Part shown: positions 24,518 to 56,850 of the stretch, piece after piece
Layout: every line of letters begins with the position of its first letter
How positions within the stretch are numbered: position 1 is the first letter of the stretch
Assembly (NCBI RefSeq): GCF_026210795.1
Contig: NC_089433.1
Span: 3,224,001-3,288,000, forward strand
DNA length: 64,000 nt
DNA from: Rhizophagus irregularis
Lineage: Eukaryota
Direction of reading: 5' to 3'
Notes under the pieces: model-generated
The model's input: only the letters and a program-made list of their open reading frames with translations
Database searches by the model: none
Told to the model about the DNA's origin: nothing
Translations under genes and position numbers: made by a program

Positions 24518-27500
24518 ATGTTTACTTGCCCATTTCAACAATGTCAAAGAACCTTTTCACGTCGACCTGCACTTCGTGAACATACAAAAACACATCAAGG
24601 TCAGGCCTATTGGGAAATATTAAACAGAATTACGGAAAATTCTCATAATATTGTGGAAGATATAAGAGTTGATTATTCTGACGAAAATATAACATTTGAG
24701 ATGGTATTTTTTTAAAAATTTTTTATTTGTGATGTATTTTTTTTTTTTTGATATGATCACAAATGTAATGTAACTTATATTAATTATTTGTACAACGATT
24801 TAATATTATAAAAGGAAGATGAACATGAAGATAATTTTACCGTAAACGAAATTTATGCCATAGATGAACATGATGTAGATGAATATGATGTAGATGAACG
24901 TGATGTAGATAATACTAACGAAATATTAGAATTTGAAGTTGAAGAAGAACCCAATTTTGAACATATCAACAATTATATCTTACGGATTCCTGAAATAACC
25001 TATCAAATAACTTCAATTGATACAAGATCCGTTTCAGATCATAGTGTTCCTCAATTTCCTGATACTGCTTATGCTGAATTTATGAAACTTGTATCAACAC
25101 ATCACTTTTCTAATTCAGCTGGAAACGATATATTAAAGTGGTTTCGAAGACATTATCTCTGAGAAAATGTAATTTTACCAGCAAATACTACACAAGGACG
25201 TGAGTTTGTTAATTCTATGAATATAGAACATTTATTATATCTCAAAACAAAAATATTAGAATATGAAAATGAAGAGTATTATCTTCATCATCGTCCCATT
25301 TTTGATGCTGTTAAAGAACTTTTATCCAATGCTGATATTCTGAAACACTGTCAATGGGATTTTTTACCAGAATATATTGTTAATAATGATGATGGTCATC
25401 ATGAACGTGTATATGGAGAACAATGGTCTGGGATGTGGTGGGAACGTATCCAAAATTTACTTGGAACGAGTGTGAAAAAGGTTTTATCCATAATTTTATA
25501 TTCTGATGCCATCACACTGGACCATCTTGGTAAAAGTTCAGAACATCCTGTTTATTTATCATTGGAAAATATTCCCAATTGGCGTAGAAATAAATGTGAT
25601 GCAAAAGCTTTGCTGGGTTTTTTACCTAAATTAAAACAAATTCACAATCGCAAAGATAATAAAAAAAGTTTTGCATCTGCTAAAAGAATGTTATATCAAC
25701 ATTGTTTTGATATCATGACAAAACCAATCTATGAAAAGTTAGAAAGTGGCTTGGACATCGTAACTGATAATCAAATAATTTGGGCTTTTCCGTTCCTTTC
25801 TGAATTCATAGGTGATCTACCTGAAGATGCTGCATTGACTTTAACTTACAATTCTTCTATATGCAAGCGTCCATGTCATATTTGCACTATCACAATTGAT
25901 GAGTTGAATAAACCTGATTTATCACATTCTCAAATAGAATTGCGAACACCCAATAATATGCAATTTATTCTGGATGCTAATATTTGTCATGAATATTCTA
26001 TTCATCCAACAAAAAATATTTTCTGGAAGTTTCGGTAAGCAATGATGCATTTGATTAATTAATATAAATAAATAAACTAAGTTTTTTTTTTTTGATAGTG
26101 AATTAAACATTTATAGTGCTGCGGTACCAGATCGCATGCACCATTGCGATCTGGGTTTATTTAATTATCAAGTTAATTTTACTCTCAAATATATTCAATT
26201 GCATTGTGGTGAAGAAGGAATTGATGAATTTAATAGACGTTTAGCAGAAATACCACATTTTTCCGGACTCAAATCCTTTAAACATGGTCTTGGTAATATT
26301 GCACGTTTCACAGCAGCAGAATTTCGAAATATGATGAAGCAATTAATTTTCGTTATTGACGGCTTAATTATTGCAAAATATAAGTCAAATTTAAACCAAA
26401 ATCAAGTGAAACAATGTGATAAAAAACTTGTTGATTTATTTTTATCATGGAATAAGATGTATATTTTTAGTCGTAAAGATACCTTTACAGACTCAGAACT
26501 TAATAATTTTCAGGTAAATTTATAATTTTTTAAAGTAATTTTTGAACATGAATATATTATATATGTCTAACTTTAATTTATTATAGGAAATGATTACTGA
26601 CTGGGCAAAAAAATTTCTTGCCTTATTTGCACCAATTGTAGATACTGAAATGAGATATCCAAAATTACACAATTGGTGTTACCATATTGTTACTTCTGTA
26701 CGAGAATATGGAGCAATAAATGGTTTCTCAACTGATACTTATGAATCTTTGCACAAATATTGTGTCAAAATTCCTTACAGAATGAGTAATCGTCGGGATG
26801 CAATTTCACAAATAGTCAAAATGGTATAGTTAATTTTTTAATAGTACATTATGAATTATTATAAATTATTATTATTAATAATTATTTTAAATAATATTAG
26901 GTACGACATGATAGTATTCTTAAATATCTTCAAAGGATAACATCACCTTCACCTTTTATTAAACATCGTCATCGTAGTAGTTCTGTATTAGGAGGATTTG
27001 AAGATAGTTTCGTATTATCTGATTTTAACAAGTTTGTTAATGAATATAAGACTAAACATTTTTTGGCATTTGAAGCTGAGAAGGCATTTGATGTATTAAT
27101 TGATTCTTTAAATCAATATTTCGATATGATTCAAGATATTACTGAAGATGATGTTGAAGCAACCATTATAAAATGGTATACTAATGCATTTATTGGAGGA
27201 ACTGATACTATACGAGCTAAAAGCAACTATTATAATTTACCTGCTTTTAGTAGTATTGCAATTAATATGGATGAAAGAGAAGCTGAAACATATAATACAT
27301 TTAATGGATTATGTTTCGCTAAAGTAAGTTCAAGCTTTATTATTTTGTTTGTTTATTTCTTATTATCAAAAAACTAAATTAATTTTATATAAAATAAAGC
27401 TTTTAATGCTATTTAGCTTAAAAATTCCCGGTCATGAAGAGTAAGAATTAGCACTTATTCAATGGTACGATTTTAAAAATAATAATTCACATAAACTGCT

Positions 27501-30364: not shown

Positions 30365-30595
30365 TAATTTAAAAATTAAGCAGTATCAAGGAAAATTCTC
30401 GCAAATTTTTCTTGATACTGCCTATTTTTAAAGTTTAAAGACCGATTAGTAACGAATTTAAGAAAAATTCTCACGAATTTTTCTTGATACCGCTTATTTT
30501 TAAAGTTTAAATAAATTGAAATTACGATTTTTTAAGAAAAATTCTCGCGAATTTTTCTTGATACCGCTTATTTTTAAAGTTTAAAGACCGTAAAA
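30365..30595. repeat. Palindromic subterminal-type repeat array (left)
   Basis: Units of about 70 bp containing AAGAAAAATTCTCGCGAATTTTTCTT; inverted relative to the arrays at 35870-36530 and 45200-45660. Confidence 0.75.
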
Positions 30596-32327: not shown

Positions 32328-35300
32328 ATGCCTTTGTGTACGTGTACTCACTGTAAAGCTTTAACAAATGGTATTGGAAAAGAAATTCATAGAACAACAG
32401 TAATTCGTCATATGAAAAAAGAACAAGAGGAGCAAGAACTAGAAAATGCATACCAAAGTCTTCATTCTGAAGAAAATTATTTTGAAGAAAATGAAGAAAA
32501 TGAAGAAGAAAACTCATATGAAGAACGCTCATCTCCTATGGAAATATCGGAAATATCTGACAATGAAGAAATTCTTATAGAGGAAGAAAATCTTACTACC
32601 TTACATAATGATGAGGCTTCTATAGAAATTCTCTCCAATTTTCAAGATGAGGATGAGGAAATTGATGATTACTATCATGAAAGCGATGACTTAAACCATT
32701 ATGATTCTCAAAGTGAATTAGAGTTTAATACCTCTGATGATAAAGAAGGTGAATTTCGAAATAATTATAATAATATTTTAAATTAGTAATTTACCAACTT
32801 TTTTTAGATAATACGACTTTTTCTAATGAATTGTTCGAAGGATTAAGGCTTTTATATGTGAAATCGAATTTTAATTTTTCTGAAGCAGCATTTAATAATA
32901 TATATAAAGCCTTCAATAGAAATAAAATAAGTTTTAATAAAGTAAAAAGAAAGCTTGGTTCAATAGTAGGAATTGAACCAAAAATATACGATATGTGCGT
33001 TAATTCATGTTGTGCATTCGTAGGAGTTTTAGAAAATGAAACAAAATGTAAATTTTGTAAGGAGGATCGATATTATAGTAATGGTAAAGCGAGAAAAAAT
33101 CTACCTTTTATTTCTATAATTGAGCGTTTAAAGCTTCAATTTAAAAACCCTGAAAGATCAAAAGAACTATTATATAGGCACAATTATACTTGTAATAAAG
33201 GAGAATTTGCTCATAATAACATAGGTGACATCTTTGATGGACAGATTTATCAAGAATTATTAAATGACGAATATTTTCCTGATCCAAGAGACATCGCATT
33301 TACTGCATCTTGCGACGGCTACCAAATATTTCGTCAAAAGACTGATGATTGTTGGGTGTTCCTGTTTCTAAATAATAATTTACCTCAAGAATTAAGAGTA
33401 AAGAAAGAAAATTTAATGGTAACTTTAATAATCCCGGGGCCAAAACAACCTCAAGATTTTAATTCATTTCTCTATCCATTAATTCAAGAAATGAAATCCT
33501 TACAAGGTATATTTTAAATAAATGGTACATAATAAATGTAATATTTATTAATAATATTTTTAATATTTACAGATGGAATCTCTTGTTACGATGGTAACAA
33601 AGAGGAACAGTTTACTCTACGTGCTCACATTCTGGCTTGGACCGGCGATATCCCTGCCCTTTCAAAGGTTCTATGTTTAACAGGACATAATTCATAGTAC
33701 TCAGGTTGCAGATTTTGTAATCTTCGAGGGACTTTAAATGAAACGAATAGACATGTGTATTATCCATTGCAACAAAATATTGATCCTAAACGATTACCAA
33801 TTCGAACACATGATGAAATACTGAATAGCACAAATCAAATAGAACGTCTGGAGGGAGATCGTAGAGAAACTTATATACGTGACTGCGGTTGGTCCAATAT
33901 TTTAAAATAAAAATAAATTCTTAGTAATTAATTTTCTCAATTTTAAAAATTTTTTGTTTATTAAAAAAAATTAGGAATTAAAGGAAAGAGTATTTTATTT
34001 GTTTTATCTTCTATAAATTTTCCACGTTCATTTCCAGTAGATATAATGCACCTTTTTTTCGAAAATGTTGCACCCCATATGTTTCGACATTGGATAGGAA
34101 AATTCTATCCAAAAAATAATGAATGGAACTCAAATGAATATACAATAAGTTCTAAAACATGGGTTGAAATTGGTGAAATCATGGAACAAAGTAGATCTCA
34201 TATGCCACCTGATATTGGACGTCCTCCACGCAATATCGTTAAACATTCAGCTGGGTTTAAAGCTGTAGAGTGGGCTAATTGGATCATTTTATTCTTTTTA
34301 CCATTACCTAAAAGGGCGATTGCCGCAAAGGTAATAAAAAAAATCAAATTGTTGGCAGATAAAATAATAAAAAGTCTGCTGATAACATTATTTAACTTAA
34401 AATAATAGTAACCTCTTAGGATGGTCAAGATTTGTTGAAGCTGTCAAGTTATGCATTCAACCTCTAATAGAATTTGAAGAGCTAGATTTAATTCGAAATT
34501 TATTAATAGAATTTTACAATCATTATGCAAAGTAATTTTCTTATGAAATTTATATATGCCTTTTTCTTTAAACGATATTTTAATTGATCACGTGAATTTT
34601 TTTGTGCAATAGTTCATATGGCGTTGGAGGAGAAAGATTACCAGCATTTTTAATTTCTTTTCATTATTTATTACATGTAATAGATTCGATTGAAGACTTT
34701 GGCCCTTGTCGTGGATTTTGGCAGTTTCCGATGGAGAGGTTTTGTGGAATGTTAATTCCACTTGTTAGCTCTCGAAAACTACCATATGTGAATTTGTTTA
34801 ATAATGTGTTGATGCAAGAAAGATTTAAGTATCTGCAACTTTTACCAATATATAATGAAAAAGTTTTTTCCAATTTTAAAGAAAAAGAAAAAAAACATGG
34901 CCGGTGCATAGAGTATATTCTAATGAATTATATGTTCACGAATACGAATTTTATTCACCATTTGTTAATTGTGTATTAACAAAAAATGAAGTCATAAAGT
35001 TAAAGCAATGTTATGCAGCTATATTTCAAAAGAATACTAGCGAAATTACGGTGATTTTATATTATAACTCACATAATAATATGTATAAGAATATTCTTTT
35101 TTAAAAAAAATAATATATAATTTTTTTTATATAGGACATTAAAGAAAACTATGCTAAGTATGGAAAACTTCGTACAAAGGATGGTAATATTATATCATCT
35201 AAGTGGTGGAAAAAAGAAAATGATAGTAGTCGAAATGATTTTTGCGTCGCTGTAAGAAATAAATACCGTATTCATCCGAAAATAAGCAACAACTTTTTCA

Positions 35301-35869: not shown

Positions 35870-36530
35870 ATAAGAAATTCTCGCGAATTTTTCTTAGTGA
35901 TCGCGATTAGTAAATTCGCGAATTTTTCTTAGTGATCGTGATTTAAATTTACTAATCGGTCTTTAAACTTTAAAATAAGCAGTATCAAGAAAAATTCGCA
36001 AGAATTTTTCTTAAAAAATCGTGATTTCAATTTATTTAAACTTTAAAATAAGCGGTATCAAGAAAAATTCGCAAGAATTTTTCTTAAAATCGTGATTTTA
36101 GTTTACTAATTGGTCTTTAAACTTTAAAAATAAGCAGTATCAAGAAAAATTCGCAAGAATTTTTCTTGAAATCGTGATTTTTAGTTTACCGTATACGGAA
36201 TTTATTTTTATTTTTTTTTTTTACCGTATACGGAATTTAATATGGAATTTATTTATTTTTTTTTTTAATACGGAATTTATAAAAACGTATATCAAATATA
36301 TATAAAACGTATCATTTCCATATACAGATTTCTTATAGTTTGAACTTAAAATAATCAGACCTAAAAATTCAACGATATTAAGGAAAATACTCGTGAATTT
36401 TCTTAACAATAGAACTTTAAAGATTAATAATCATGACTTTAATTTACCAATCAGATTTTGAACTTTAAAATTAAGCAGTATTAAGAAAAATTCTTGTGAA
36501 TTTTCCTTACTAATCAGGGTTTGAAGTTTA
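35870..36530. repeat. Palindromic subterminal-type repeat array (inverted relative to 30365-30595)
   Basis: Units TTTAAACTTTAAAAATAAGCRGTATCAAGAAAAATTCGCAAGAATTTTTCTT. Confidence 0.75.
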
Positions 36531-37459
36531 AATTAAAAATTCTTTTGTAAATTTGACGATTTTCAAATATCGATTATTAGAGGAGCGTCTTTATATTAGT
36601 TTAATCAAAAATCAATTTATCATAGATGGAATTGAAATTATTATATTTATATTAAAATTTATGGTTAAAATTTAATAGAATAAAGAAATAAAAGATAAAA
36701 CGAATGAAAAAACGAATATAAAAATTTATTATTAGTTTAATTAAAAATCAATCATCAGCAAGTTTTAAACAGGCATATAAAGTGTTGAAAAACACCATGT
36801 GTTGCTCAACGCCAAAAAACGTAGGGAAACGAACCCTTTGTCAATCAACACCACTTAAAAATGTTTAAAAACGTGTAAAACAACACCCATTTAAGTGTAA
36901 AGCTACACATAGTAAAACAACGATAGTTTAAAAACGCGTATACAATGTATAAAAACGCGTATATTGATATTAAAAACACGTATAGCAACGGTAGCAATGG
37001 TATTTTTTAGTCATCGTACGATAGTTAACTTTAATTGTAGTATTAGTAATTTATTAACATATATATTATTGTATATTATTAACGTGTATATTTTAAAATT
37101 TTTAAATTGTAAAACATTGTAAATTTATTTATAGAATACAGTACAATACAAATACAATATCTAATCATGTAAAATTGTAAAAATTCATCCTCTTGTTATA
37201 ATTGGATTGCCGCGGATTTTTAAGCGATCAACGTACTAAAATTCCGTTGACATAGCGCCCCTGGTGACACAACCATAACAAGGTGGAAATATGAACTTTC
37301 CCTCGATAATTATATTAATATTATGCTCCTTCATGATAAAAATCAAAACCAAATCTCGTCGTATGTGTCTTAACAACATCAAGTGGTTTAATATTCACAT
37401 TGAGGATTGAGGAATTATCTTCCATTATTCATTCGCTCAAGGGTCGAAATAACCATCAA

Positions 37460-39900
37460 GCTGACCTACAAAAGAAAAATCCAGAGCGCCGAAAAGAAAA
37501 TCTAGGCCTACAAAAAAAAGAGAAACGTTCAGTTAGAACGTTTCTTAAAGAATAAAATTAAAAAAAATAATTAAAAAAATGTAAGTTTCGAATATCGAAA
37601 CTTACCATATCAGCATATCCAAGTCCCAAAGCCAAAAGAATCGATACCTACAAAAAGAAAAGAGAAAATTAAAAAAAAATAAAAAAAATAAAAATAAAAA
37701 ACGTGTTTTATTCAAAACTTACTGATTCTTTAGGTTTTCCGTTCTTCGGAAGCCCACCCGAACCTATAAAAAAAAATACAAGAACGGTTAGTTAACCGTT
37801 CTTAATAATAAAAAAATAAAAAAAAGTTAAGATTCGTACCATACCTTACGAATCTTTGGGTTTTCCGTTCTTGGGAAGCCCACCCGAACCTATAAAAGAA
37901 AAAAGAAAGAACGGTTAGTAAACCGTTCATAATAATAAACAAAGAAAGAAAAAAATAAAGATTCTTACGAATCTTTGGGTTTTTCCGTTCTTGGGAAGCC
38001 CACCCGAACCTATAAAAGAAAAGAAAGGAACGGTTAGTAAACCGTTCCAAAATATTAAAAAAAACAAAAACCAAAATTCGTACTTGTACTTACGAATCTT
38101 GGTTCTCCCGTTTGTCCGAAGTCCACCCGAACCTAAAAAAGAAAGGAACGGTTATTAGTAACCGTTCATAATATTAAAAAAAAAAAATAAAAAAAACAAA
38201 ACCAAGATTTGTATATACTTACGAATCTTGGTTCTTTTCCGTTCTTCGGAACCAGGAAGCCGCCCGAAACCTAAAAAATAGAAGTAAAGAACGGTTATTA
38301 GTAACCGTTCATAATATTTTTTTAAAAAAAAAACAAAAAAAAAACAAAACCAAGATTTGTATATACTTACGAATCTTGGTTCTTTTCCGTTCTTCGGAAC
38401 CAGGAAGCCGCCCGAAACCTAAAAAAAGAAAAGAACGGTTATTAGTAACCGTTCATTAATAATATTAAAAAAAAAAGAAAAAAAAAATTAAACCAAGATT
38501 CGTACTTATCTTACGAATCTTGGTTTTCCGTTCTTCAGAACTCAGAAGCCCACCCGCTGACCTAAAGAAGAAAGGAAAAAAAAATGAAAAAAAATTACGA
38601 AACGTTAATAAGCCGTTTCGTTAAAAAATGTAATAAAAAAAAATCGAACGCTTAGCCAACGTTTCGATTAAAGAAAAAAATCAAAAAAGTTTCGAAACGT
38701 TAAAAACGTTTCGTTAAAAATGAAATACAAAAAAATTGGAACGTTAGCCAACGTTCCGATTAAGAAAAATAAAAAAAAAATGTATTTTGAAACGTTAAAA
38801 AGCGTTTCGTTAAAAAAAATGAAAAATAAAAAAATCGGAACGTTAGACAACGTACTGATTAAAGAAGTTAAAAAAAAAAGAATAAATGAAACGTTTTTCA
38901 ACGTTTCGTTAAAAAAGTAAAATAAAAAAATAATCAGAACGCCAATGTTCTGATTAAAAAAATTAAAAAAATTGTTTCGAACGTTAAAAACGTTCCGATT
39001 AAAAAAAAAGAAAAAAAATATTTTCAAACGCTAAAAAACGCTTCGCTAAAAATGAAAAATCGAACGCTTAACCAACGTTCCGATTAAAAAAATAAAACAA
39101 ATATTTCAAACGCTAAAAAACGCTTTCAAAATAATTTTAATGAAAAATCGGAACGCTTAGCCAACGCTCCGATTAAAAAAATGAAAAAACAAATATTTCG
39201 AACGTTGACAACGCTCCGATTAAAAAATAAAACAAATATTTCAAACGTTAAAAAATGTTTCAAAATATTTTAATGAAAAATCGGAACGTTAGCCAACGTT
39301 CGATTAAAGAATTTTTTAAAAAACAATATTTCGAACGCTTTTCAACGTTCCGATTAAAAATGAAGTAAAAAAATTAATCAGAAGCGTTAGCCAGCGTTCC
39401 GATTAAAAGAATTTAAAAAAAAATAATATTTGAACGTTTTTCAACGTTCCGATTAAAAATGAAATAAAAAAAATAATCAGAACGTTAGCCAACGTTCCGA
39501 TTAAAAGAATTTTTAAAAAAAATATTTTGAAACGTTAAAAAACGTTTCGTTAAAAAATGAATAAATAGTTTCGCAACGTTTTGTTGCGAAACTCACCAAA
39601 CTTTTTTCCGTAAAAGGCTCATATCTCTGGAATTAATGACCTTATATTACGGAATTTATCCACTTATTACATTTTCTGTGAATGGATCTGTGAAGGCTCA
39701 TTTTTACGGAGTTTTTATAGAAATAACGGATAAAACTTTTATAAAGGAAAGGGGAGAAAGGGGAGAACGAAAGGGAAAAGAACGAAACGAAAGGGAAGGG
39801 GAGAAATAAAGGGTAATGGGAAAATAAAAGGGAAGGGGAGAACGAAGGGGAGAACGAAGGGGTAATGGGAAAACGAAAGGGAAGGGGAGAACGAAGAAAA
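37460..39900 (-). other. Predicted spliced micro-exon transcript (ncRNA or short basic peptide)
   Basis: Pyrimidine-rich first exon ending at 39597, then exons 38515-38561, 38371-38418, 38223-38270, 38094-38132, 37969-38009, 37850-37889, 37723-37763, 37606-37647, each bounded by TAG and GTAAG. Confidence 0.6.
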
Positions 39901-39902
39901 GC

Positions 39903-39998
39903 AAAAAAAATTAAGCTTTGCTAAAAAAAGCTTAATTTCTTTTTTTGCTATACCGCAGTCCGCAGCGGTAATCCAGTATCACGTGATACATGTGATAT
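39903..39998 (-). promoter_or_regulatory. Conserved palindromic block upstream of the micro-exon array (copy 1)
   Basis: AATTAAGCTTT..AAAGCTTAATT, TACCGC..GCGGTA and TATCACGTGATACATGTGATA; shared with 50088-50202. Confidence 0.55.
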
Positions 39999-40557
39999 AG
40001 AGTACGGCCATTATAGTATTGCCGAAATGATTTTTTTTTTAAATACTAATTTTAATAAATGTATATTATACTTAAATTAAATAGTACAGTGGTTAGATCG
40101 TGAGATATGATATTGTAAGTTGAGGTAACCGGTTCGGTTCCTAAGGTGAGTAAAAATAAATAAATAAATATAATTTAATTAAAATATACACATGTAATCA
40201 TATATATGCGTTAATATACAGTGCGTTGAACAACAATGCATAATGTGTTGCACTACAAATTAGAGTTGAACGACGCGTATATTAACATTATGCGCTGATA
40301 TACTCCAATATATGGGTGTTGATTAATATTGTTAATCATGTTGAACAACTAGCTGGTGTTGATCAACGCGTATACTGGTGTGAATCAACGCTTTTCAAAC
40401 TTGCTGATGATAGATGGAATTGAAATTATTATATTTATATTAAAATTTATGGTTAAAATTTAATAGAATAAAAAAATAAAAGATAAAACGAATGAAAAAA
40501 AATGAATAAAATTTTAAAAAGAAAAAATTTTAAAAAGAAAAAGAATTTAAATTCATT

Positions 40558-42478
40558 TTATGTATTATAAATTTTATTTAACTTTTCAATTCTTTTTCTT
40601 TTGGCTTCATTCTTAAAGGCTTTGTATAACCGTTTCCCGTCAAAACGGGAAACCAGTTGGTTCGTTCTTACTAATTCCAGCCACCTTTCAAAATTTACCA
40701 CTCCTATTTTTTTTGCGGTAAATAGGTAAGGATCTAAATCTGAAAAGGCATAAACAATATTATAATTATCTGATGCCATTTCCAGTAATCTTTTAGCTCT
40801 CACCGCCTTGTTTAAAATTGTAGATATAGTGGTAGCCTTTAACCGTGGTGCTATTTGATCTGGTAATTTTGATGATTTTTCGATCATCGTAATAACTTGA
40901 GATTTAATAGTTTCCCCTTTGTTTCGCTCATAATTTATACTGCAATAAATTTCGAGCCTTTCATAATATTCTAAGAATAAAATGAGATGCTGAAATTGCC
41001 GGCATCTTAGAATTTCAGTGGATACTTGATCTTTTAATGATAGATCGTATATGTTTAATATAATATTTGTTATTGCCGTACAGGCCAATTTTTTCTTATT
41101 TTCAAATTCTCGTGAGTCAGATAAATTGACCAATAAACTAGGATCATTTATTTCGGCAATAATATCCTGATTTATTATAGGATCATCCGGGCTTATGATT
41201 TGGTGATCCAAACTTCCTTCGCCAGTCTCTTCTTTTTCATCATTTAAAATATAGCTTATGGAAGCTCTTTTAGAAGAAACTTCAATGAGCACGAATTTGT
41301 CAATGTTAGTTGAAAAAAATTCATCCACACTGGCGATTTTGGATAAATGGTCAATAAGAAAATAATGATATTCTTCTTTATTTGGAATATCGTTATTATT
41401 CGTTGGAGGGGGGGTTGGAAGTTTATGGATATTATTGAGGAGGATGTGTAAATGACGTCCCATATTAATTGTCGATTCCGGAATACTATGGTTCTCTTCC
41501 TCATTCACTTCCTCGTCTTCTTTCTTGCCTATTTCCTCGCCTATTTCCTCGCCAAAGATTAACTGATCTTCCTTTCTTTTCTCTTCCTCGTCTTCTTTCT
41601 CATCTTTTTCTTCGCCCAGGATTAACTGCTGATCTTCCTCTCCTTTCTCATCCTCGTCTTCTTCCTCGTCTTTTTCTTCGCCCAGGATTAACTGCTGATC
41701 TTCCTCTCCTTTCTCATCCTCGTCTTCTTCCTCGCCTTTTTTTTCACCCAGGATTAACTGCTGATCTTCCTCTCCTTTCTCATCCTCGTCTTCTTCCTCG
41801 TCTTTTTCCTCGCCTAGAAATAACTGATCTTCCTCTCCTTTCTCATTCTCTTCGTTTTCCTCTATATCCATTTTTTCGTCAGGAGCTATCTTTTCTCCGC
41901 CATCGTCATGGATTATCTTATCCTCTTCGTTTTCCTCTATATCCATTTTCTCACCATCCTCGTCAGGAACTACCTTTTCTCCACCATAGTCATGAATTAA
42001 CTGATCTTGCATTTCCTCATCCTCCTCACCCTCCTCATCCTCAATAATATCAATTGTTTTATCACTTTCATAACCGTAGTGATAAACATCATCTTCTGTT
42101 ACTTCACCATCATTATCATTAATATTATCTTTATTGTGATCTATATCAACGACTGGTACCTGAAATTTATGACCGTTTGGCAATTCTAATAATATGCTAG
42201 ATTCGTCGATAATTGCTTTTTTATAACCACATTCTTTTAAAAATCTTTGTGTCTTTAGTATTGACGACAATAATTCTATTATATATACAATAAAATATTT
42301 AATTATTTACTATATATAATAAATAAATTAATAAATGCAATAAAAATACTTTTATACTTGCTTTATTATTATCGCCTTTTTCTGCTATGAATGTAGAAAT
42401 ATCAGACGTCGCTGCTGCACTTGTTCCTGCAAGTGAAGAATCAGACATTTTTGATGGAATGAATGGAATGAAAGACAT
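40558..42478 (-). CDS. Hypothetical protein with acidic 22-aa repeats and a helical C-terminal domain; probable transposon cargo or accessory gene
   Basis: 570-aa open frame plus a likely first exon (ATG 42478 or 42448, intron about 42357-42276); 66-nt tandem units at about 41550-41850 (GEEKDEEEDEDEKGEEDQQLIL). Confidence 0.7.
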
Positions 42479-45199: not shown

Positions 45200-45660
45200 C
45201 AAAGTCCGAATAATCAAATTCTTGCGAATTTTCTTAAATTAAACAGTAGATCGGACTTTAAACATTAAAAAATAAGCAGTATTAAGAAAAATTCTCGCGA
45301 ATTTTTCTTAAATTAAGCAGTAGATCGGACTTTGAACATTAAAATTAAGCGGTATTAAGGAAAATTCTCGCGAATTTTTCTTAAATTAAGCAGTAGATTG
45401 GACTTTGAACATTAAAATTAAGCAGTATTAAGGAAAATTCTCGCGAATTTTTCTTAAATTAAGCAGTAGATCGGACTTTAAACATTAAAATTAAGCAGTA
45501 TTTTGCGCTTTAAAAATTAAATACTATTAAGAAAATTTTGCGCGAATTTTTATTGATGATCGTAATTTAAATTGGACGTTAGTAATAAGAAAATTTTACT
45601 GATCAGGGTTTGTACTTTAAAAAAATTTATTAAGGAAATTATCCCGAATTTTTATTAATG
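45200..45660. repeat. Palindromic repeat array, units of about 73 bp
   Basis: AAGCAGTATTAAGGAAAATTCTCGCGAATTTTTCTTAAATTAAGCAGTAGATCGGACTTT in at least four copies; same family as 30365 and 35870. Confidence 0.8.
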
Positions 45661-47935: not shown

Positions 47936-48749
47936 CACTAGTCGAAATAAGAAATTTCGGACATGTGACTTTCGGCTAAGTTTCGGAATAAATTTCAGCC
48001 AAAATTCGTCTGAATTTAATTTCAGCTTAATTTCGACTCACATGATTTCTGAAGTTTTATTCTGAAGTTCTTCTGAAGTTCTTCTAATGTTCTGATTTTT
48101 CAAAGTTCTGATCATTATATAAAACTCGGTTTCCGAAATTTATTATGAACAAGTGACACTTATGTAAAACTCAAAAAAAAAGAATTTATGTAAAATCCAA
48201 TAAAAAGCAACAACTTCCGTCAAATTTCAACTAACAAAAATGAAGATTTATTATTATTATTTTTAACAAATGTTAAATTTTCTATTAACAGGATTTACGG
48301 CCAAATATTCTCTCGCATTTTTCCTATCCAAAATTTTATATTTTATTGGCACCATCAGTAAGATTTTGGGTGGTGTATACTAGCGTTAATTAACGCCAAT
48401 TGACACTAGTGTAGTTTAATGCTTTAAAATGTAGAAAAACTAACCCTATAATGACTGATACTATCAAAATACGTGTATAAAAATGCAGTTTAGTGTTAAA
48501 CAACACGTATCATGTGTTAGTTGATTTGTATTGTACAATACACACATAGTATTGAAAAATACATTTATTTACATGTATATTTTAGTTGAAAAATGCATAA
48601 AAAAGTGTTGATTTACACATTTATTTACATGAAAATATGCATTTTTTATCTAATTATTTAACTAATGTAAATATCTAATATAGATCTATATATATGAAAT
48701 AAGTTTTCAAAAGTAAACTCAAAAACAATTGTGCTTACAAAAAATAACC

Positions 48750-50085
48750 TCCAGTTTCCAGGTACCGATTTAAAGCCCTTTTGCCGGGTAATCTAATATC
48801 TTGCTTTGAAATCATAAAAATTCTATTTAAACCTACAAAAAAAAGAAAAAAAAACATTAAAAATAATAATAAAAAAAATAAAATAAAACAATCTCATAAA
48901 GAAACTTACTGTTTAGTTCCAATACAGTGAATACACTTTGAAACTTCAGGACCTATATAATAAAAAAAAAAGAAACATTGAATAAGTTTTTTATGAAGAA
49001 AAATAAATAAGTTTCGTTTCAAAATTCGAAACTTACCATCCAAAACCAATTGAAGGCGGAACTAACTAAATAATAATAAAATAATTCGTTTCGCAACAGA
49101 ATGTTGCGAAACTTACAGTCCGAAAATTCCCAACACGTTCCGGTTACAAAAAAAAGTAAAATAGAAATGTTAACTAACGTTTCTAAAATAAAATGAAAAA
49201 AAATTTATTTCACAGCGGGACGTTGTAAAACTTACAATTCAAACGTTTTTAGCGCGTTCCTGATCCGAGGTAACACTTTGATCCTACAAAAAGGATAAAG
49301 GAGACGTTAGCAAACGTTTCCTAATAAAAATAAAAAAATATATTTTAAAGTTTCGAAGTGAAACTCTTCGAAACTTACCTTCAATCTGAAACCAAAACTT
49401 TCTCGAATCTTGGATTTGAAACTGTATACCTAAATAAATAAAAGAAAAAGGAAATGTTAGTAAACATTTCCTAATTTAAAAAAAAATCAAAAAATTAACA
49501 GAAGTTTCATAACGAAATGTACGAAACTTACCGTTTCAGAACCCATATCCAATACTGAATATTTAACTCTATAAAAAATAAAGGAGACGTTTAGTTAGAA
49601 CGTTTCCTAATAAAAAAATTTTTTTAAAAAAGTTTCGAGATAAATGGCTCGAAACTTACCATTCCGTTTCCTCTAAAATTGAATATGCCAAAAGTACTAC
49701 AAAAAAAAAATTATGGAAACATTAGTAACGTTTCCTAATAGAAATTAAAAAAAAAATTATTTAAAAAAAGTTTTGAGGTGAATGCCTCAAAACTTACCAT
49801 TTCGCCCGAAGTACAACAATGGTCCTACAAAAAAAAACCAAAGGAACGTTCCCTCATAAAATTAAGAAAAAAATAACTTTAAAAAAAAGTTTCGAAGCTT
49901 TCGCTTTGAAACTTACTATTTTGGAAATGGGAAAACGAATAAGAAAAGGGGAAAAAGGGAAGGGAATAACGAAAGAGGAGAAGGGGAGAACGAAAACAAA
50001 AAGGGAAAGGAGATAACGAAAGAGAAGGAGAAGGGGAGAACAAAAAGGGAAAGGGGAGAACGAAAGAGAAAAAAGGAAAGTCGTG
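48750..50085 (-). ncRNA. Predicted spliced non-coding micro-exon transcript
   Basis: Pyrimidine-rich first exon ending at 49917, then exons 49798-49824, 49660-49696, 49532-49568, 49379-49429, 49236-49283, about 49117-49143 (acceptor mutated), 49037-49061, 48910-48952. All donors are GTAAGTTT. All three frames hit a stop within the first three micro-exons. Confidence 0.55.
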
Positions 50086-50087
50086 AG

Positions 50088-50202
50088 AAAAAAATTAAGC
50101 TTTTGCTAAAAAAAAAGCTTAATTTTTTTTTTCGCAATACCGCAGCACTGCAGCAGGCGCAGCGGTAATTATTAATCCAGTATCACGTGATACATGTGAT
50201 AT
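50088..50202 (-). promoter_or_regulatory. Conserved palindromic block upstream of the micro-exon array (copy 2)
   Basis: Same three palindromes as 39903-39998, including the E-box TCACGTGA. Confidence 0.55.
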
Positions 50203-53200
50203 GTAGATTTATATAAATAAGGGGCTTTTTCCTGAAATTTTTTTTTATATTTTTTTTAATAGATGTATATATGTGCTTATATATACATATATATATATCT
50301 ATTAACTTTAATACTTTACGAAAAGCCCCTCCTCTATAAATAGGTAGAGGTCATAAAGTACCTATAGGGGGAGAACTATTGCTGCTCCCTCTGCCTGTTT
50401 TATAGTGATAAAAAGAGGGAGTCTTCAGTAGTAAGGTTTGATGTGTATTTATACACATTAATTAGTAATATTAAACAACACAATAAACTACACCTAGTAT
50501 TAAAAAGTATGTATAATGTTAAAAAACACTAATAAAAATGGTTGTATTTCTATACTAAATTGCAGTATAACAAACTTCGTATTTATATATATTGCTTATT
50601 GGCATTTAACAATATGTTAAACTACATTTGTGTTGAAAAATATGTATAGTATTAATAAATGGTAATAACAACTAGTGTATTTTTATACTAAATTTTAATA
50701 AAACAACATTTTGTATTTGTTTACATTGATTGATGGCATTAAACTACATTGCATATCATATTGAACTATACTTGACATCAAACAACATAAAAAAACTTGT
50801 ATAATTATATGTATATAACAGCATTCAGTATTAATCATTACAGTATACAGTATTAAACAATAGGATATATCATATTAAACAACTTCTTAATGTTAATTAA
50901 CACTAAAATTATATAAAGCAACACTTTTAAAACTTGCTGATGACAAATCTACTGAGAATATTATGCACTGGAATTATGCAATCTCGACCTTCAGGGTAAA
51001 ATTCAGTACCCCAAAGTTCGACATTGCAAATTTCATCGTCTTCAATACTGAAATAATAACGAGAATTCGCTGGTTGATACCATTGAATGAATGCCAAATT
51101 ATGTTCCAATTCTCCATCCGGTAAGTCAACCTTGTGAGAAAAAAAGAATTGAACTTGTCCGGGATAACAATCAACGCTACCGTCTTGTGTTATAAATTTG
51201 GCTAAAATATACGAGTTCTTTACGTGTCGAGCAAACATATTTGACCCAAATGTCTCTGAACTGATTCTACATCTACCGAACTGTTTCATTTTGACGGAAA
51301 TGATCTTTGAATTCTCATGGCCTTCTCTGAATGGCTTTTGAAACTCAAGTGTTTCATAAGTCGCCAAATAGTATTCGACCAGTAAATCAAGCATTGAATT
51401 TGATATCACTACATTTTCAGAGGCGGGACCCAACATTTCACCTGGAAATGACTCGCTTCCAGTGACTATTGATTGTTGAATATTTCGCGAATTCAACCAA
51501 AATCGTTTTATTTCATCGGCTGAAAATTCGTCAACCTCTGCCAAGGATCCAACAAAAGTTCGGTTATTGAGAAGTTCTAGTCCCCTTACATTTTCTCCAG
51601 AATTTATAATACTATCAATGTGGATATCAGCCATCATTCGTCGCATAATTTCCAGTTCTATTTTCCTATGGCTATTTGGTAAGACGCCTAAAATTTAAAA
51701 TTACGATTACGCATAAATTAAGAATAAGAATATTAAACCTAAATAAATAGTTATAGTTTACCTAATATACCATTCATGCGTTCGAAGGAGAAACACCAGA
51801 ATGCGTATAAAGGTCCAAAATCATACGTACATTCACTCAAATGAAATGAAAGATGGAAATTAGGAGTAATTTTATTTCGTCCATAATGTTCCTCAATGAA
51901 CTTCACAATTTCAATCAATTTCTCATGCGATTCTCTCATAGCATCAAGTTCTAAAATTTGACTTACGAAAGCTGTACAAACTCTCACAAAATGATGGAGA
52001 ATTTTCTGATCATGTACCGAAAGGTGACTCCATAGCGATACTGTAGCATAAATTGTGAAAAAGATTTGCCATTGATCTGCTGTAAAATTTGAAAATCCTT
52101 CTCTGCAATGGATTTTCCCAGGGATTCGTCCCAAATCGGATGGAATCTGAAACTCATCCATTTTTTTTTGAATTTTTATAAACGATTGTTGGTTTAAAAT
52201 TCCTTCATCAACCCAAATTCTTTTCACTATCCATCTCACAATGCCTAGAAATAAGCAGTACATTGGATTGACAACAATGAACCTTATAGGGTCGAAGTAT
52301 AACAACCACAATAATTCTGACCATCTAACTCCAGTATCTTTCGTAAAATGTTTTCGTGAAGCATTAGAGTTACAACGTCGCCATTCATGTGCATTTTCAC
52401 GAAACTCGGCCAAATCTCAAGTAACAAACCATTCGTCTATATTGTCTATCCTGGCGAAATTATTTTGTCGATTCTCATAATTTGCTCGTTTTTTGCACCA
52501 GTGACATAATGCAAGCGCTAAAATATGTCCGCATATCTTCCTTACCACGGGAACATCACACAAAACTAGTACTAAAACTGCACGAATATTTTTTCCGTTT
52601 TGGCATTCAAATGTTCGATTTAGAGTTATTCCACTCTATAGTAATTCTAAATCATTGACAATTGGTGCTAAATAGTGATTGATTTGGTGTAAGCTCACTT
52701 CGTTAGGACCTGGTAATATTCTGAGAATTAATAAATTTTCTCTTTTAAATCAAATGTCTCGAGGCAAGTTTCAAATGGCGACATATATCACACCGGTGCT
52801 GTGAATTGTCCCTTCATAGGGTTGGAACCAATCCACATTCAGCATTAGACCGAGGTGTGAATCTGCAACTTTAGGCCGGAAAAAATTAGGCGAATCATGA
52901 TAAGAAGTATCCTTAAATGTTTACTACACTTGACCATCGTAAATGTCAGTCAATATATTTTCAGAATGTAATCGATCGGACCAATGTCTGAGTGACCTTT
53001 CGAATTCTGATCGAAGATATAGGGTTGCTAATTGTTGACGAATTGTAGAAAATGGATAAATCATCTCAATTCAATTTGACATTCTATTTAATAATCTTAT
53101 TTGATGAGATAAAGGAGTTTGGCACTTCTGGCGTCTTGATGAATTTGGAAATTCGATATGTTGACATTTCATAATGGCAAGAATTTCATCTTGACGAAAC

Positions 53201-54789
53201 TCCTCTACTTCTTGTTTGTTGTATAATTTGTGACACTTCGTACATGCTGCAAAGCAATGAAATCGATCTTCTATGTTGAGAATATTTCTCGCTTTATATA
53301 AAGTGACGGGAAAATTTTCAAATGCAGTATCGCCAATTTCATCCAATAACAGTTTTATGAACTTTATTAGTGATTCAGTTGCTGTTTCTGGAATGTTAAA
53401 TCTCATTCGAAATTTCATAATCCATATTAAAATCCATAAAAACTTATTATCATCGCTAGTTGGAGTTGGAGTGACATCTGGGTCTTGATATGGTTCGAAA
53501 GAAGGGCATGAATAATCTTCAAAAGTTTCAGATTTGTTATTTTCCGATTCGTCATCTCCATTCAATTCGTTATCATTAGTGTCTTCGCTTTGATCTTTGG
53601 CCATACTTTCTCTCAGTAATAAATCTTGTTCGATGTTACTGATGTTACCAATGGAAACTCTAGTCAAATATACCTTGATCTACGTCTTTGAGGCAATCGG
53701 TCAACTCTTTGCTCATTTAAAATAGTCAATTGAGATGATTCATCATTAATATTTTCAGTATTTTCCAAAACTTCAGATGGTTCATTATCCCAAATTTCAG
53801 TATTTTCCAAAACTTCGATAGTTCGTTATCCCGAATTTCAGTATTTTCGATAATTACTTCTGAAACATCTGACGAAAGTTGGCTTGATAATTTATGTCAA
53901 TTCTTTGTGCGAGGAGCAACTAATATTCCTTCGCAATCGCTACAGAAACAGGGTACTTTATGAATTCTTGGCTGAATGATTGATCGAGTAGTAACTCGAG
54001 GTGATCTGGTAGTAATAGGATTTTCATCAAGTACACTAGATATCGTTCTTTTTCGTCCCATTTTGTCAAAAATTTCAGATAATTTTGATAATTATGGAAT
54101 TGTATCGAAATTTGTTTCGATTCAATAATTATCATATAATTGTTACTAGTGAAGTTTCGACTAATGAATTTTCAACTTGAGCGATCAACTTAAAAGTGAT
54201 TTATCGAATTCTCATCAAACTTTATGAATTTTCCATTAACTTTAAGTGATGTATTGAATTCTCATCAAACTTTACGAATTTTCCATCAACTTTAAGTAGG
54301 ACCCCGGAAAATGCTTATATATGTAAGGTACCAAGGTGCTTAGCCAACATAGTAAAGTTTTATGATGTAAGAATTTTATAATGCTTAATTTTAAGAAAAT
54401 TTTATACTATGTAAGATAATTAAATTGCATATTTTTGGTATTATTTTAAAATACTAAGAGTTTTTAGTTGCTTATTTTTCATATTTATATAACTTTTTAA
54501 AATATTATATATTGAATTTATAATTAATTTTTATTTTATTTTCACTAACGGTGAGTGTTAATTTTGTACTACATTTCACAATTTTATATAAATACATAAA
54601 CAAAAATTTTTTTTTGATGAAATTTCATTTTTTTTTTCAATGTTTTATTAATTATCTGTCAATAGTATCTTTTTAATTTTTATTAAACTCAGTGTATTAT
54701 TTTTAATATAAAATTACTGTATTATACATGTTTATTTTGTTAAATAAAATTACTATAAATATGTTTTACTTTAAAATATAATTTCACTA

Positions 54790-55330
54790 CTCACCACTTT
54801 GGTTATATCAAATTATCTTTTATGCTTAAGTAAGTTTGTTCAGCAAGTTAAATCTACTTGTATTTTAATTTTCATAAGGCTAAGTATGATATTTATATAG
54901 AAAAGCATATTTTTTTTAACGGTAATAACTTTTAAATTTTTCACTTTTTCGTTTATAACTTCAGAGCGTAATTACACCACTTCAGTCAAATGAAATTGAC
55001 TTTCTAAATTAATTGAAAGTTGTTCAGCAAGGTCGAAACTACTTATATATTAATTTTCATGAGTGTGGGTATAATACTTATGGAGAAAAGTGCATTTTTC
55101 ATAACGGTACTAACTTCCGAATTTTTCATTTCTCCGTTTACAACTTCAGAGCGTAATTACACCTCTTTGGTCAAATGAAATCGACTTTCTAAATTAATTG
55201 AAAATTGTTCAGAAAGGTTGAAACTACCTACATATTAATTTTTATGGGTGTAAGTATAATACTTATGGAGAAACTTACATTTTTTGTAATAGTATTAATT
55301 TCGAATTTTTCTTTTACTGTTTATTAACTT
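54790..55330. repeat. Tandem repeat, unit about 183 bp, about three copies
   Basis: AACTTCAGAGCGTAATTACACC at about 54957 and 55142; TGTTCAGMAAG at about 54837, 55021 and 55206. Confidence 0.8.
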
Positions 55331-55524: not shown

Positions 55525-56850
55525 ATGCTTAGCGATCATAGTAAAAACCTATGCTTAGAGCTACTAATAAAAAATATTTTTGGGATCTTACCTATATAAG
55601 TATTTTCCGGGGTCCTATGGAAGTGGTGAGAGAGAAGTCAATGTGGTTGTTGAAGTTGCTAAAACTAGTGATGAAGACGGAGATAATAGCGAACAATTGA
55701 TAAATAAAAACTCATTAAGTAATCAAGATGTTGATATGATAGAAGTCCCTGGGAACGCTGAAGAATGTGTCCAGGAAGCAGGTTATGAGGTTATTGAAGT
55801 TGCTAAAAAAACTAGTGATGAAGATGGAGATAATAGCGAACAATTGATAAATAAAAACTTATTAAGTAATCAAGATGTTGATATGATAGAAGTCCCTGAG
55901 AACGCTGAAGAATGTGTCCAGGAAGGAGGTTATGAGGTTATTGAGGTTGCTAAAAAAACTAGTGATGAAGATGGAGATAATAGCGAACAATTGATAAATA
56001 AAAACTCATTAAGTAATCAAGATGTCGATATGATAGAGTTCCCTGGGAACGCTGATGTATGTGTCCAGGAAGCAGGTGATGAGGTTGGTAAAATGACCAA
56101 AACTAGTTATTTGTGTCCAGTATACAATAATAGAGGTACCGATGAAGAAAACATGTTTGGCGAACAAATGGTAAACAATAACTCTGAAAGTAATGAAGAA
56201 GATGTAATTTTATTCAAAAATGCTTTCATTAGCGAATACTATGATGACGTAGAAAGTAGTTTTAATGCATTAAATATTACAAATGATTATAATATTTGGC
56301 CTCAATATACATCGTTAAATGCTGTTGAATTGTCACAAAGTCACGAGCTTTCTCATTTTGAACATCAAGTTCATTCGTCTACTTATTTACAACTATCTGA
56401 AATGTACGATTACGGTGATAATTATTCACAAAATATTGATTTATCGTTACGTGATGAAAGAAAATCATTAGATATAAACAAATCTTTAAAATTGTCTAAA
56501 AAACTATTGAAAGAAACAGAATTAAAAGATTCGATTATTTCTGTTGCTTATCCTAAATATAGAAATTCTGAAAATTTAAATTATTTAGAGAATAATAATT
56601 TTTTAAACATACTTGAAAATTGTTTAATTGCAGAAATCAAATCAGAATCACAAAAATGCGAATTATTATTAAATTATTATAGGACTGGGGCATATTTAAA
56701 TAAAGTATTAGAAGACTTAAAGAACGAGTTATCTGATATATCTGAAATTATTGAACGAAATATATGTACTGCTATAGTCGACAATTTTAAGTTCCGTAAA
56801 ATGATTTCCGAAAAATAAGTTTTTAATATATGCAGGGTTATACGTAATTA
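55525..56850 (+). pseudogene. Hypothetical protein with three 49-aa acidic repeats; frameshifted start and premature stops
   Basis: 412-aa frame 55580-56818 with 147-nt repeats; ATG 55525 joins it only with a 1-nt shift in a T run near 55577-81; similarity to the 47236 ORF continues past the TAA (EK*VFNICRVIRN* versus RKFVYDCKKARNF). Confidence 0.6.

Follow-up and report, generated by a model that had tools for sequence, protein, structure and literature searches.

The origin and spread of new introns is an open question, and the known fungal cases, introner-like elements and symmetrical stwintrons, concern single introns in coding genes of Ascomycota. In the passages drawn on here, the work on introner-like elements of the Dothideomycetes (Collemare, van der Burgt, and de Wit; PMC3609843) puts intron duplications within the same gene on record, and that on the symmetrical sister stwintrons of the Hypoxylaceae (Fekete et al., 2021; PMC8469720) describes terminal inverted repeats of 45–55 nucleotides (nt) that pair the two intron ends, with a nested intron in the donor. 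In the parts of a review that treat tau exon 10 and SMN2 exon 7 (PMC7404189), natural stem-loops that embed the 5′ splice site reduce binding of the U1 small nuclear ribonucleoprotein (snRNP). Here we analyze an array of micro-exons in an early-diverging, Rhizophagus-type fungus. It lies in a 64,000-nt stretch of Rhizophagus irregularis DNA (contig NC_089433.1, positions 3,224,001–3,288,000), which we call the window and to which all coordinates refer, and it is compared with a second array in the same window and with a third copy on a metagenome contig. We tentatively propose that these loci are tandem, non-coding arrays of a “splicing cassette” that form a multi-copy family spliced in polyadenylated (poly(A)) RNA, and that their hairpins, which are predicted to restrain U1 and U2, would slow or gate splicing.

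Tandem units and their transcripts

Parsing of the first array recovers the eight micro-exons of 39–48 nt, seven of them homologous, that an earlier note made from the sequence alone had described (38561–37606 on the minus strand; Table 1). The seven, E2–E8, are variants of a single sequence and their units, U2–U8, span 37723–38561 (−). Each unit of 120–148 base pairs (bp) is self-contained, with a 3′ splice site, a micro-exon of 39–48 nt, a 5′ splice site, a T-rich spacer, and a branch site. Introns 2–9 are 75–100 nt long (79–100 nt for introns 2–7), and the canonical spliceosomal signals that characterize introners are present in all eight of these short introns as GTAAG...TAG, with removal seen for intron 7; a CTAAC or CTAAT motif lies ~20–25 nt ahead of the acceptor in introns 2–7 and 9. 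The head-to-tail copies of one unit that characterize a minisatellite are present as well, and two periods are called by Tandem Repeats Finder, one of 120 nt (4.0 copies, 79%) and one of 148 nt (2.9 copies, 88%). U3 and U4, spaced 148 nt apart, are 98% identical over 105 nt and form the sole supported pair on the unit tree, while the remaining units are alike at 60–80%. The units thus duplicate in tandem, exon together with intron, and then diverge, as the earlier note had inferred. Upstream of E2, the putative intron 1 opens with a hairpin at its 5′ splice site (39593–39567; 11 bp, −14.8 kcal/mol) of the type found in the second array, and its body holds ~10 copies of a palindromic unit of 98–99 nt (2 x 49 nt), GAAACGTT..AACGTTTC and AATCGGAACGTT-GGCT-AACGTTCCGATT, for which Tandem Repeats Finder gives periods of 48–50 and 98–99.

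RNA evidence comes from three poly(A) RNA sequencing runs of 2026 from “organism A” (X19, X20, and X21), unstranded and mapped to 37200–39900, where 831–1119 reads per run match; the splice joints are the best 15 of 51, and 37554–37705 was masked as repeat. Intron 7 (37849–37764) is exactly removed: its joint, 37763|37850, is carried by 10, 18, and 27 reads in the three runs (55 in total), and its ends are CT..AC on the plus strand, equivalent to GT..AG on the minus. Two further joints, 37763>37736 and 37889>37736, with 11 letters between, are found in 8–14 reads per run and place an exon-8-like body and the tail CCCAAAGATTC directly against GTTCGGGTGGG; they are best read as spliced exon–exon junctions of near-identical exons. 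Composite exons with other tails account for 13–18 reads. Most matching reads lie only partly on the locus (760–1050 of 831–1119, or 91–94%, per run), just 70–115 per run are at least 99% identical to it, exon 7 is represented in most reads by the exon-8 variant, and 403 contigs of a soil run (X1) fall on the 2.7 kb. Therefore, the array belongs to a multi-copy, expressed, and spliced family, in which this copy contributes a minority of the reads at most, or else the sequenced strain differs. The earlier note had allowed for a plain minisatellite if spliced reads were absent; they are present, and because the array is spliced it is not a plain minisatellite. E1 is linked to the array only putatively, as an E1–E2 junction is not among the 15 of 51 joints listed. 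Read depth is 0–8 in intron 1, 8–19 in the 37473–37563 bin, and 0–7 below 37472.

Two local features of the read depth stand apart. The depth of the locus peaks at 39–64 in intron 5 (38019–38093, −), where reads run into unrelated sequence on both sides: at the loose end 38019 the branch-hairpin module is followed by TTATAG and foreign exon-like sequence (35–51 reads per run), and exon-5-like sequence plus GTAAGTACA is followed by foreign sequence in 52–60 reads with 97–99% agreement. Since these intron 5 reads extend into foreign sequence, copies of the module must exist in other transcripts. The second feature is a 48-nt segment (39693–39740, −), just after the TATAAAAG motif, with a depth of 20–44 against 0–5 on its flanks. 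It carries two fixed differences (39718 and 39736) in nearly all reads, and is therefore either a further expressed repeat of the dispersed kind or the 5′ portion of paralogs that are expressed.

A third copy is found on a metagenome contig of 1707 nt, L001, which contains nine units of the first-array family and, after them, two second-type introns, in the same order as in the window and with 70–78% identity to the window array. Its exons measure 46, 46, 37, 41, 45, 49, 31, and 45 nt; among its nine donors, two have mutated to ATAAG. Pattern scans of viral contigs gave no match, and neither did the first pattern in contigs of prokaryote genomes; the single match of the second pattern there, in Flavobacterium, is an unrelated tandem repeat and was rejected as chance.

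Hairpins at the donor and branch site

The donor of six of the seven homologous units lies inside a palindrome of 8–15 bp formed by the exon end and the intron start, in agreement with the earlier note. A second hairpin, GAACGGTT..AACCGTTC (8–10 bp), occupies the branch site of introns 2–7 and is missing from intron 8, so that six of the seven introns of homologous units carry it; in intron 9 the pairs differ, being GTAAGTTTCGA/TCGAAACTTAC and AGAAACGTTC/GAACGTTTCT. The earlier note had also placed the branch point within a hairpin. This holds for the same six introns, with its position refined: in hairpins of the TACTAAC type UACU alone is in the loop, and the final three bases, including the branch A, sit in the stem. 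As a consequence, the target sites of both U1 and U2 are partly paired.

Both the frequency and the stability of these hairpins go beyond what the controls lead one to expect. A perfect donor hairpin of at least 8 bp occurs at 9 of the 148 GT[AG]AG sites in the window, and all nine are inside the two arrays, as compared with 0–3 in Markov simulations (n=30). Single hairpins (n=11) have energies of −8.4 to −18.9 kcal/mol, and 0–2 of 200 shuffles are equally stable. For the donor hairpin of U2 and its equivalents the values are −10 to −18.9 kcal/mol and 0 of 200, and the two branch-site hairpins that were folded, those of introns 2 and 7, give −11.3 and −11.5 kcal/mol. The stretch of two units from E6 to E8 has z = −4.2 and its stability is reached by none of 200 shuffles, so that the excess structure typical of introners is found here relative to shuffled sequence.

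Pairing is also retained as the sequence changes. In an alignment of six window and eight L001 units, 94.6% of the cells of the donor hairpin are paired and four pairs (7 cells) are altered on both sides. Among 500 shuffles none attains either this cell count or the covariation score, and the maximum in slid controls is 1. The double changes from C-G to A-U or U-A, and from A-U to G-C, are not cheap; one of the four is, because it amounts to two CpG transitions at partner positions. L001, for example, has CTAAGGTTCGTAA/TTACGAACCTTAG where the window has AACCAAGATTCGTA/TACGAATCTTGGTT. The palindromy of the donor hairpin is maintained via compensatory changes. Two other ideas on pairing were rejected: a Dicer substrate or microRNA precursor, as the stems are merely 8–15 bp, and alternative pairing with the exon's own copy of the branch-hairpin arm (AAGAACGG), as the L001 variants of that copy are unmatched by changes in the hairpin.

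The same hiding of the donor, with different sequence, was claimed by the earlier note for the array at 48.7–49.9 kb, and this design is indeed found there. The eight internal micro-exons of this second array (27–51 nt) are mutually unrelated in sequence and no open frame runs through its exons. Its introns share donor hairpins, GTAAGTTTCG..CGAAACTT, and branch-site hairpins, GGAAACGTT..AACGTTTCC, and the distal stems vary from intron to intron with complementarity kept (GAGG/CCTC, GAG/CTC, GAAG/CTTC, and GCAAC/GTTGC). In the first locus, the second-array type recurs in intron 9 and at the 5′ end of intron 1, and homologous introns stand beside non-homologous exons both in the second array and at E9. 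The two arrays also share an upstream block, which in the first locus is 72% identical over 271 nt (BLAST) to 49942–50202 and contains a 30-nt core (39969–39998) with a CACGTG palindrome, present twice in the window at 0 mismatches and never in shuffles, together with a TTAAGCTTT..AAAGCTTAA hairpin and CT-rich repeats (39743–39896). We infer that this block is a putative promoter. The downstream flanks of the two arrays are 58–62% alike.

Table 1. Coordinates of the two micro-exon arrays and of their hairpins in the window.
Feature	Position	Strand	Description
Upstream block common to both arrays	39755–39998	−	30-nt core, hairpin, CT-rich repeats
Putative exon 1 with ATG at 39622	39597–39622	−	donor GTGAGT at 39596; from sequence only
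Putative intron 1	38562–39596	−	1035 nt; 5′ splice site hairpin and palindromic minisatellite
E2	38561–38515	−	47 nt
E3	38418–38371	−	48 nt
E4	38270–38223	−	48 nt; equal to E3 in sequence
E5	38132–38094	−	39 nt
E6	38009–37969	−	41 nt
E7	37889–37850	−	40 nt
E8	37763–37723	−	41 nt
Intron 8	37722–37648	−	without hairpins
E9	37647–37606	−	42 nt; sequence unrelated to E2–E8
Intron 9	37605–37508	−	second-array-type hairpins: donor 37605–37581, branch site 37545–37521
Last exon	37300–37507	−	frame ends after 2 codons; 3′ end putative
U2 donor hairpin	38490–38526	−	15 bp, loop 7; across exon end and intron start
U3 donor hairpin	38381–38348	−	13 bp and one mismatch
U4 donor hairpin	38233–38200	−	13 bp and one mismatch
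U5 donor hairpin	38104–38069	−	13 bp and one mismatch
U6 donor hairpin	37976–37957	−	8 bp, GUAA in loop
U7 donor hairpin	37856–37829	−	10 bp
Intron 2 branch-site hairpin	38430–38457	−	GAACGGTTA-CTAA-TAACCGTTC
Branch-site hairpins, introns 3–7	38310–38289, 38167–38146, 38048–38027, 37928–37909, 37803–37780	−	equivalents of the intron 2 hairpin
Paralogous second array	48650–50202	−	upstream block, eight internal micro-exons, first and last exon

Explanations for the paired splice sites

The mechanism that we tentatively put forward places the action of the hairpins on RNA rather than on DNA. Transcription would start at the shared upstream block, and the hairpins would form on the nascent transcript within ~35 nt of synthesis and would compete with U1 at the donor and with U2 at the branch site. 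The result would be a slower or ordered removal of introns that are just 40 nt apart, with spliceosome assembly held back. Hairpins of −10 to −19 kcal/mol are stronger than a duplex of 6–7 bp between U1 and a 5′ splice site. A selfish or neutral family, introner-like and tolerated since it removes itself by splicing, is more likely than a host gene. A role in RNA is preferred over one in DNA mainly because hairpins and U1 and U2 sites coincide in two families whose sequences are unrelated. We rank it first, while short of calling it probable; a DNA-level repeat comes next as a lesser possibility, an appendage of the upstream gene is improbable, and a small-protein gene hardly comes into question.

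Several observations weigh against an action on RNA, of which gating would be a purely predicted effect. U8 has neither a donor nor a branch hairpin, yet its splice signals are good, and the repeated unit of intron 1 is built from a pair of related hairpins but has neither 5′ nor 3′ splice sites, which means that palindromes also occur apart from splice sites. Support from RNA is thin, with intron 7 the only junction of this exact locus among the 15 of 51 joints listed and with most reads derived from paralogs or another strain, and hardly any reads of these runs come from the second array (8–22 in each and no GT..AG joints). Stem mismatches on the transcribed strand number 5 G·T and 8 A·C, giving no G·U bias; folding energies barely differ between the strands (−83.1 versus −83.5 kcal/mol). 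From these last two results, action at the RNA level and at the DNA level are inseparable by the present data. Furthermore, the 13 transition mismatches include 9 that convert CpG to TpG/CpA, which we read as decay of the hairpins in some units.

A palindromic repeat at the DNA level, either a minisatellite or the interior of a mobile or segmentally duplicating element, is a possible explanation to which we give less credence. The palindromes might form cruciforms or slippage-prone hairpins that drive expansion, or might be protein-binding sites, with their symmetry kept by template-switch repair, and the splice signals would persist since the repeat is spliced out harmlessly wherever it is transcribed, by the logic of a transposon acting as an intron. 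Strand-symmetric folding without G·U bias is what such a repeat would show, and intron 1 is a pure hairpin minisatellite. The multi-copy nature of the family, the three different contexts of its arrays, and the read ends with the branch-hairpin module beside unrelated exon-like sequence (35–51 reads per run) point in the same direction, as do the transposon-rich surroundings (tnp2, Plavaka, and 72–74 nt subterminal repeats at 30.4, 36.0, and 45.3 kb) and the 110-nt direct repeat on both sides of the locus. However, a role in DNA needs no register between the palindromes and the splice signals, and in two unrelated families they are in register with both the 5′ splice site and the branch site. 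The units all run in the same direction with splice signals complete and correctly spaced, and the compensatory changes alter the half-sites, making a dimeric binding site recognized by its sequence less likely. Finally, terminal inverted repeats or a target-site duplication bounding the arrays were not found within the 64-kb window, where the sole flanking repeat is the 110-nt direct one; the copies of the upstream block are likewise in direct orientation to each other, and no inverted partner of it was found in the window.

We consider unlikely the more far-reaching idea that the arrays are structured spliceosomal introns of a new class, spreading in tandem as cassettes with their own acceptor, micro-exon, donor, and branch site and with the U1 and U2 sites locked by hairpins, the 3′ arm of the second-array donor hairpin mimicking the 5′ end of U1 (ACUUAC), and that arrays behind genes serve as tunable spliceosome stalls feeding mRNA decay or small-RNA silencing in an arbuscular-mycorrhizal fungus. 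It is also improbable that the array is a regulatory appendage of the upstream gene, located in its 3′ untranslated region or read through from it, where such introns or stalled spliceosomes would mark the transcript for nonsense-mediated decay (NMD) or for small RNAs and the stability of the hairpins would set the spliced share. The position of the arrays suggests this explanation. The L001 array starts ~120–160 nt past the stop codon of a same-strand open reading frame (ORF) whose last 92 residues share 95% identity, and the end residue, with the C-terminal part of a Rhizophagus irregularis protein of 306 amino acids (aa), and both arrays in the window are downstream of same-strand ORFs (40558–42270 and 50927–53679). 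Three same-strand placements are weak statistics, however, and the coupling to NMD or RNA interference, known from other fungi, is hypothetical here. The window arrays moreover have their own conserved block and CT-rich tract at 0.5–0.9 kb from the upstream ORF, and the interval from the ORF side to the first array (39748–39900) has a read depth of 0–5.

Whether the array encodes a protein can be judged from its frames and from the distribution of conservation. The earlier note had started at the ATG at 39622 and spliced the exons into an open frame of 125 aa, rich in arginine, lysine, and glycine; the present splicing returns exactly the same letters and confirms that homologous exons are read in different frames (phases 2, 1, 1, 1, 1, 0, and 1). 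Besides the open frame, the window array has two others with 2 and 1 stops; one open frame is unremarkable because few stops occur in this sequence whichever frame is read. The spliced product of L001 has 1, 3, and 3 stops in its three frames. When six window units are aligned with eight L001 units, identity is 50% in the exon body, 26% in the hairpin loop, and 60% in the T-rich spacer, as compared with 81% in the exon tail and 5′ splice site arm and 83% in the branch hairpin. The exon body is therefore the block of lowest identity apart from the loop, and conservation of the splice signals and stems is the opposite of the pattern of a coding gene. Conservation of frame and amino acids between copies, by which the earlier note would have recognized an ordinary gene, is not seen between the window array and L001, and its argument against constraint on a protein is borne out by the mixed phases, the L001 stops in all frames, and the divergent exon body. 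A protein search with the unspliced 95-aa frame across the array returned 162 candidates, none of them significant. The array is very probably non-coding, and an ordinary gene for a small basic peptide of 125 aa, for which there speaks one frame that starts with an ATG exon and stays open across seven repeated exons, can be dismissed as very improbable given three phases among homologous exons, 1–2 stops in the other frames, the stops and the two ATAAG donors of L001, the poorly conserved exon body, and an E1–E2 junction missing from the listed joints.

Genomic setting and comparison with known systems

The window is AT-rich (G+C of 22–35%) and contains transposase ORFs of fungal type (Plavaka, 25217–26038; tnp2, 32831–33517) and fragments of cytochrome P450. 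Sequencing runs that contain the window include soil samples, which, together with the R. irregularis-like gene beside the L001 array, would point to an arbuscular-mycorrhizal fungus of Rhizophagus type. Repeats of 72–74 nt of the subterminal type, each with an internal palindrome, AAGAAAAATTCTCGCGAATTTTTCTT, are clustered at 30373–30590, 35962–36198, 36468–36539, and 45268–45502. The first two clusters are mutually inverted (92–95% complementary) and surround the tnp2 ORF, and therefore probably belong to a DNA transposon of 5.8 kb; the cluster at 45.3 kb is oriented like the right end of that transposon. A direct repeat of 110 nt (36619–36728 and 40407–40516; 93% identical, 3788 nt apart) brackets the entire first array locus and may be a segmental duplication or an element boundary. 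A short distance upstream of the conserved block is a tRNA-like remnant found by eye (40085–40145, +), with a D-arm-like AGTGGTTAGA and a T-arm-like GGTTCGGTTCC, which could be the head of a short interspersed element or a decayed tRNA gene; ARAGORN called no tRNA in the whole window. Rfam 15 gave no match in the window at the gathering score, and its sub-threshold matches in 37200–40100 (mir-1252, mir-3051, and L20 leader; 21–25 bits) are weak, at the level of chance, and were discarded.

The ORF immediately upstream of the first array (40558–42270, −) is a frame of 570 aa with no Pfam family and with five acidic tandem repeats of 66 nt (22 aa; 41497–41892), rich in glutamate, aspartate, and lysine. 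Upstream of the second array is a chain of ORFs (50927–53679, −) of 255, 221, 72, and 202 aa that looks like a transposon protein. Pfam is empty for the three of these frames that were scanned (255, 221, and 202 aa), and a protein atlas returns eukaryotic hypothetical proteins with one DUF4218-bearing cluster (rank 19, score 0.92), which is a lead only. Tandem duplications are also present at 54851–55220 (+; 185 nt x 2, 83%) and at 55661–55954 (+; 147 nt x 2, 97%), the latter within a 412-aa ORF (55580–56818).

Among the systems with which the arrays might be compared, the micro-exon genes of schistosomes have runs of very short exons whose lengths are multiples of 3 and encode secreted proteins. 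Runs of short exons are common to both, but here the exons are 39–48 nt, in mixed phases, and coding constraint was not seen. Transposons can be spliced as introns, as in maize dSpm/Ds and, reportedly, with CACTA in soybean. Like these, the arrays are repeat DNA with splice sites in transposon-rich surroundings; unlike them, no transposon ends, target duplications, or link to a transposase were found for the arrays in the window.

What the arrays might mean depends on the level at which the hairpins act. If it is RNA, the arrays would be a natural experiment, replicated many-fold, on how local structure gates the recognition of splice sites, and might also be a reservoir of ready-made introns. 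If it is DNA, they would show how a palindromic minisatellite gains splice signals and becomes invisible to host genes. In addition, the arrays carry a warning for annotation, as gene predictors could render them as false basic “proteins”.

The tau exon 10 and SMN2 exon 7 elements share with the arrays a hairpin across the exon–intron junction, which there competes with U1 snRNP and here is predicted to do so; in the parts of that source relied on (PMC7404189), they are single regulated exons of animal coding genes, whereas here six of seven homologous units have the hairpin, the units are very probably non-coding, and there is a branch-site hairpin in addition. The Hypoxylaceae stwintrons, as treated in the passages concerned (PMC8469720), are proliferating fungal introns with inverted repeats that are suspected to matter for their spread, as is the case here, but the arrays differ in that their hairpins are local (8–15 bp) and un-nested and are repeated in tandem. 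Searches of the open-access literature brought up no report from Rhizophagus of arrays of this kind or of introners.

Of known systems, introner-like elements come closest; in the sections of PMC3609843 consulted, they are multi-copy, near-identical introns with canonical signals (donor, branch point, polypyrimidine tract, and acceptor) and an unusually stable predicted structure, and are prone to degenerate. The arrays look like structured multi-copy introns of this sort, with a possible membership among introners. According to the same sections, introner-like elements lie one at a time in protein-coding genes that are unrelated to each other, and their copies can number into the hundreds. 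At the three loci considered here, by contrast, insertion within protein-coding sequence was not found, the flanking micro-exons being without coding constraint, and the copies are head-to-tail. What is distinct about the arrays is that the intron duplicates and travels with its own micro-exon, 11 nucleotides of which are taken into one of the hairpins, that the family is spliced, and that its best-conserved parts are two short local hairpins placed exactly on the sites that U1 and U2 read.

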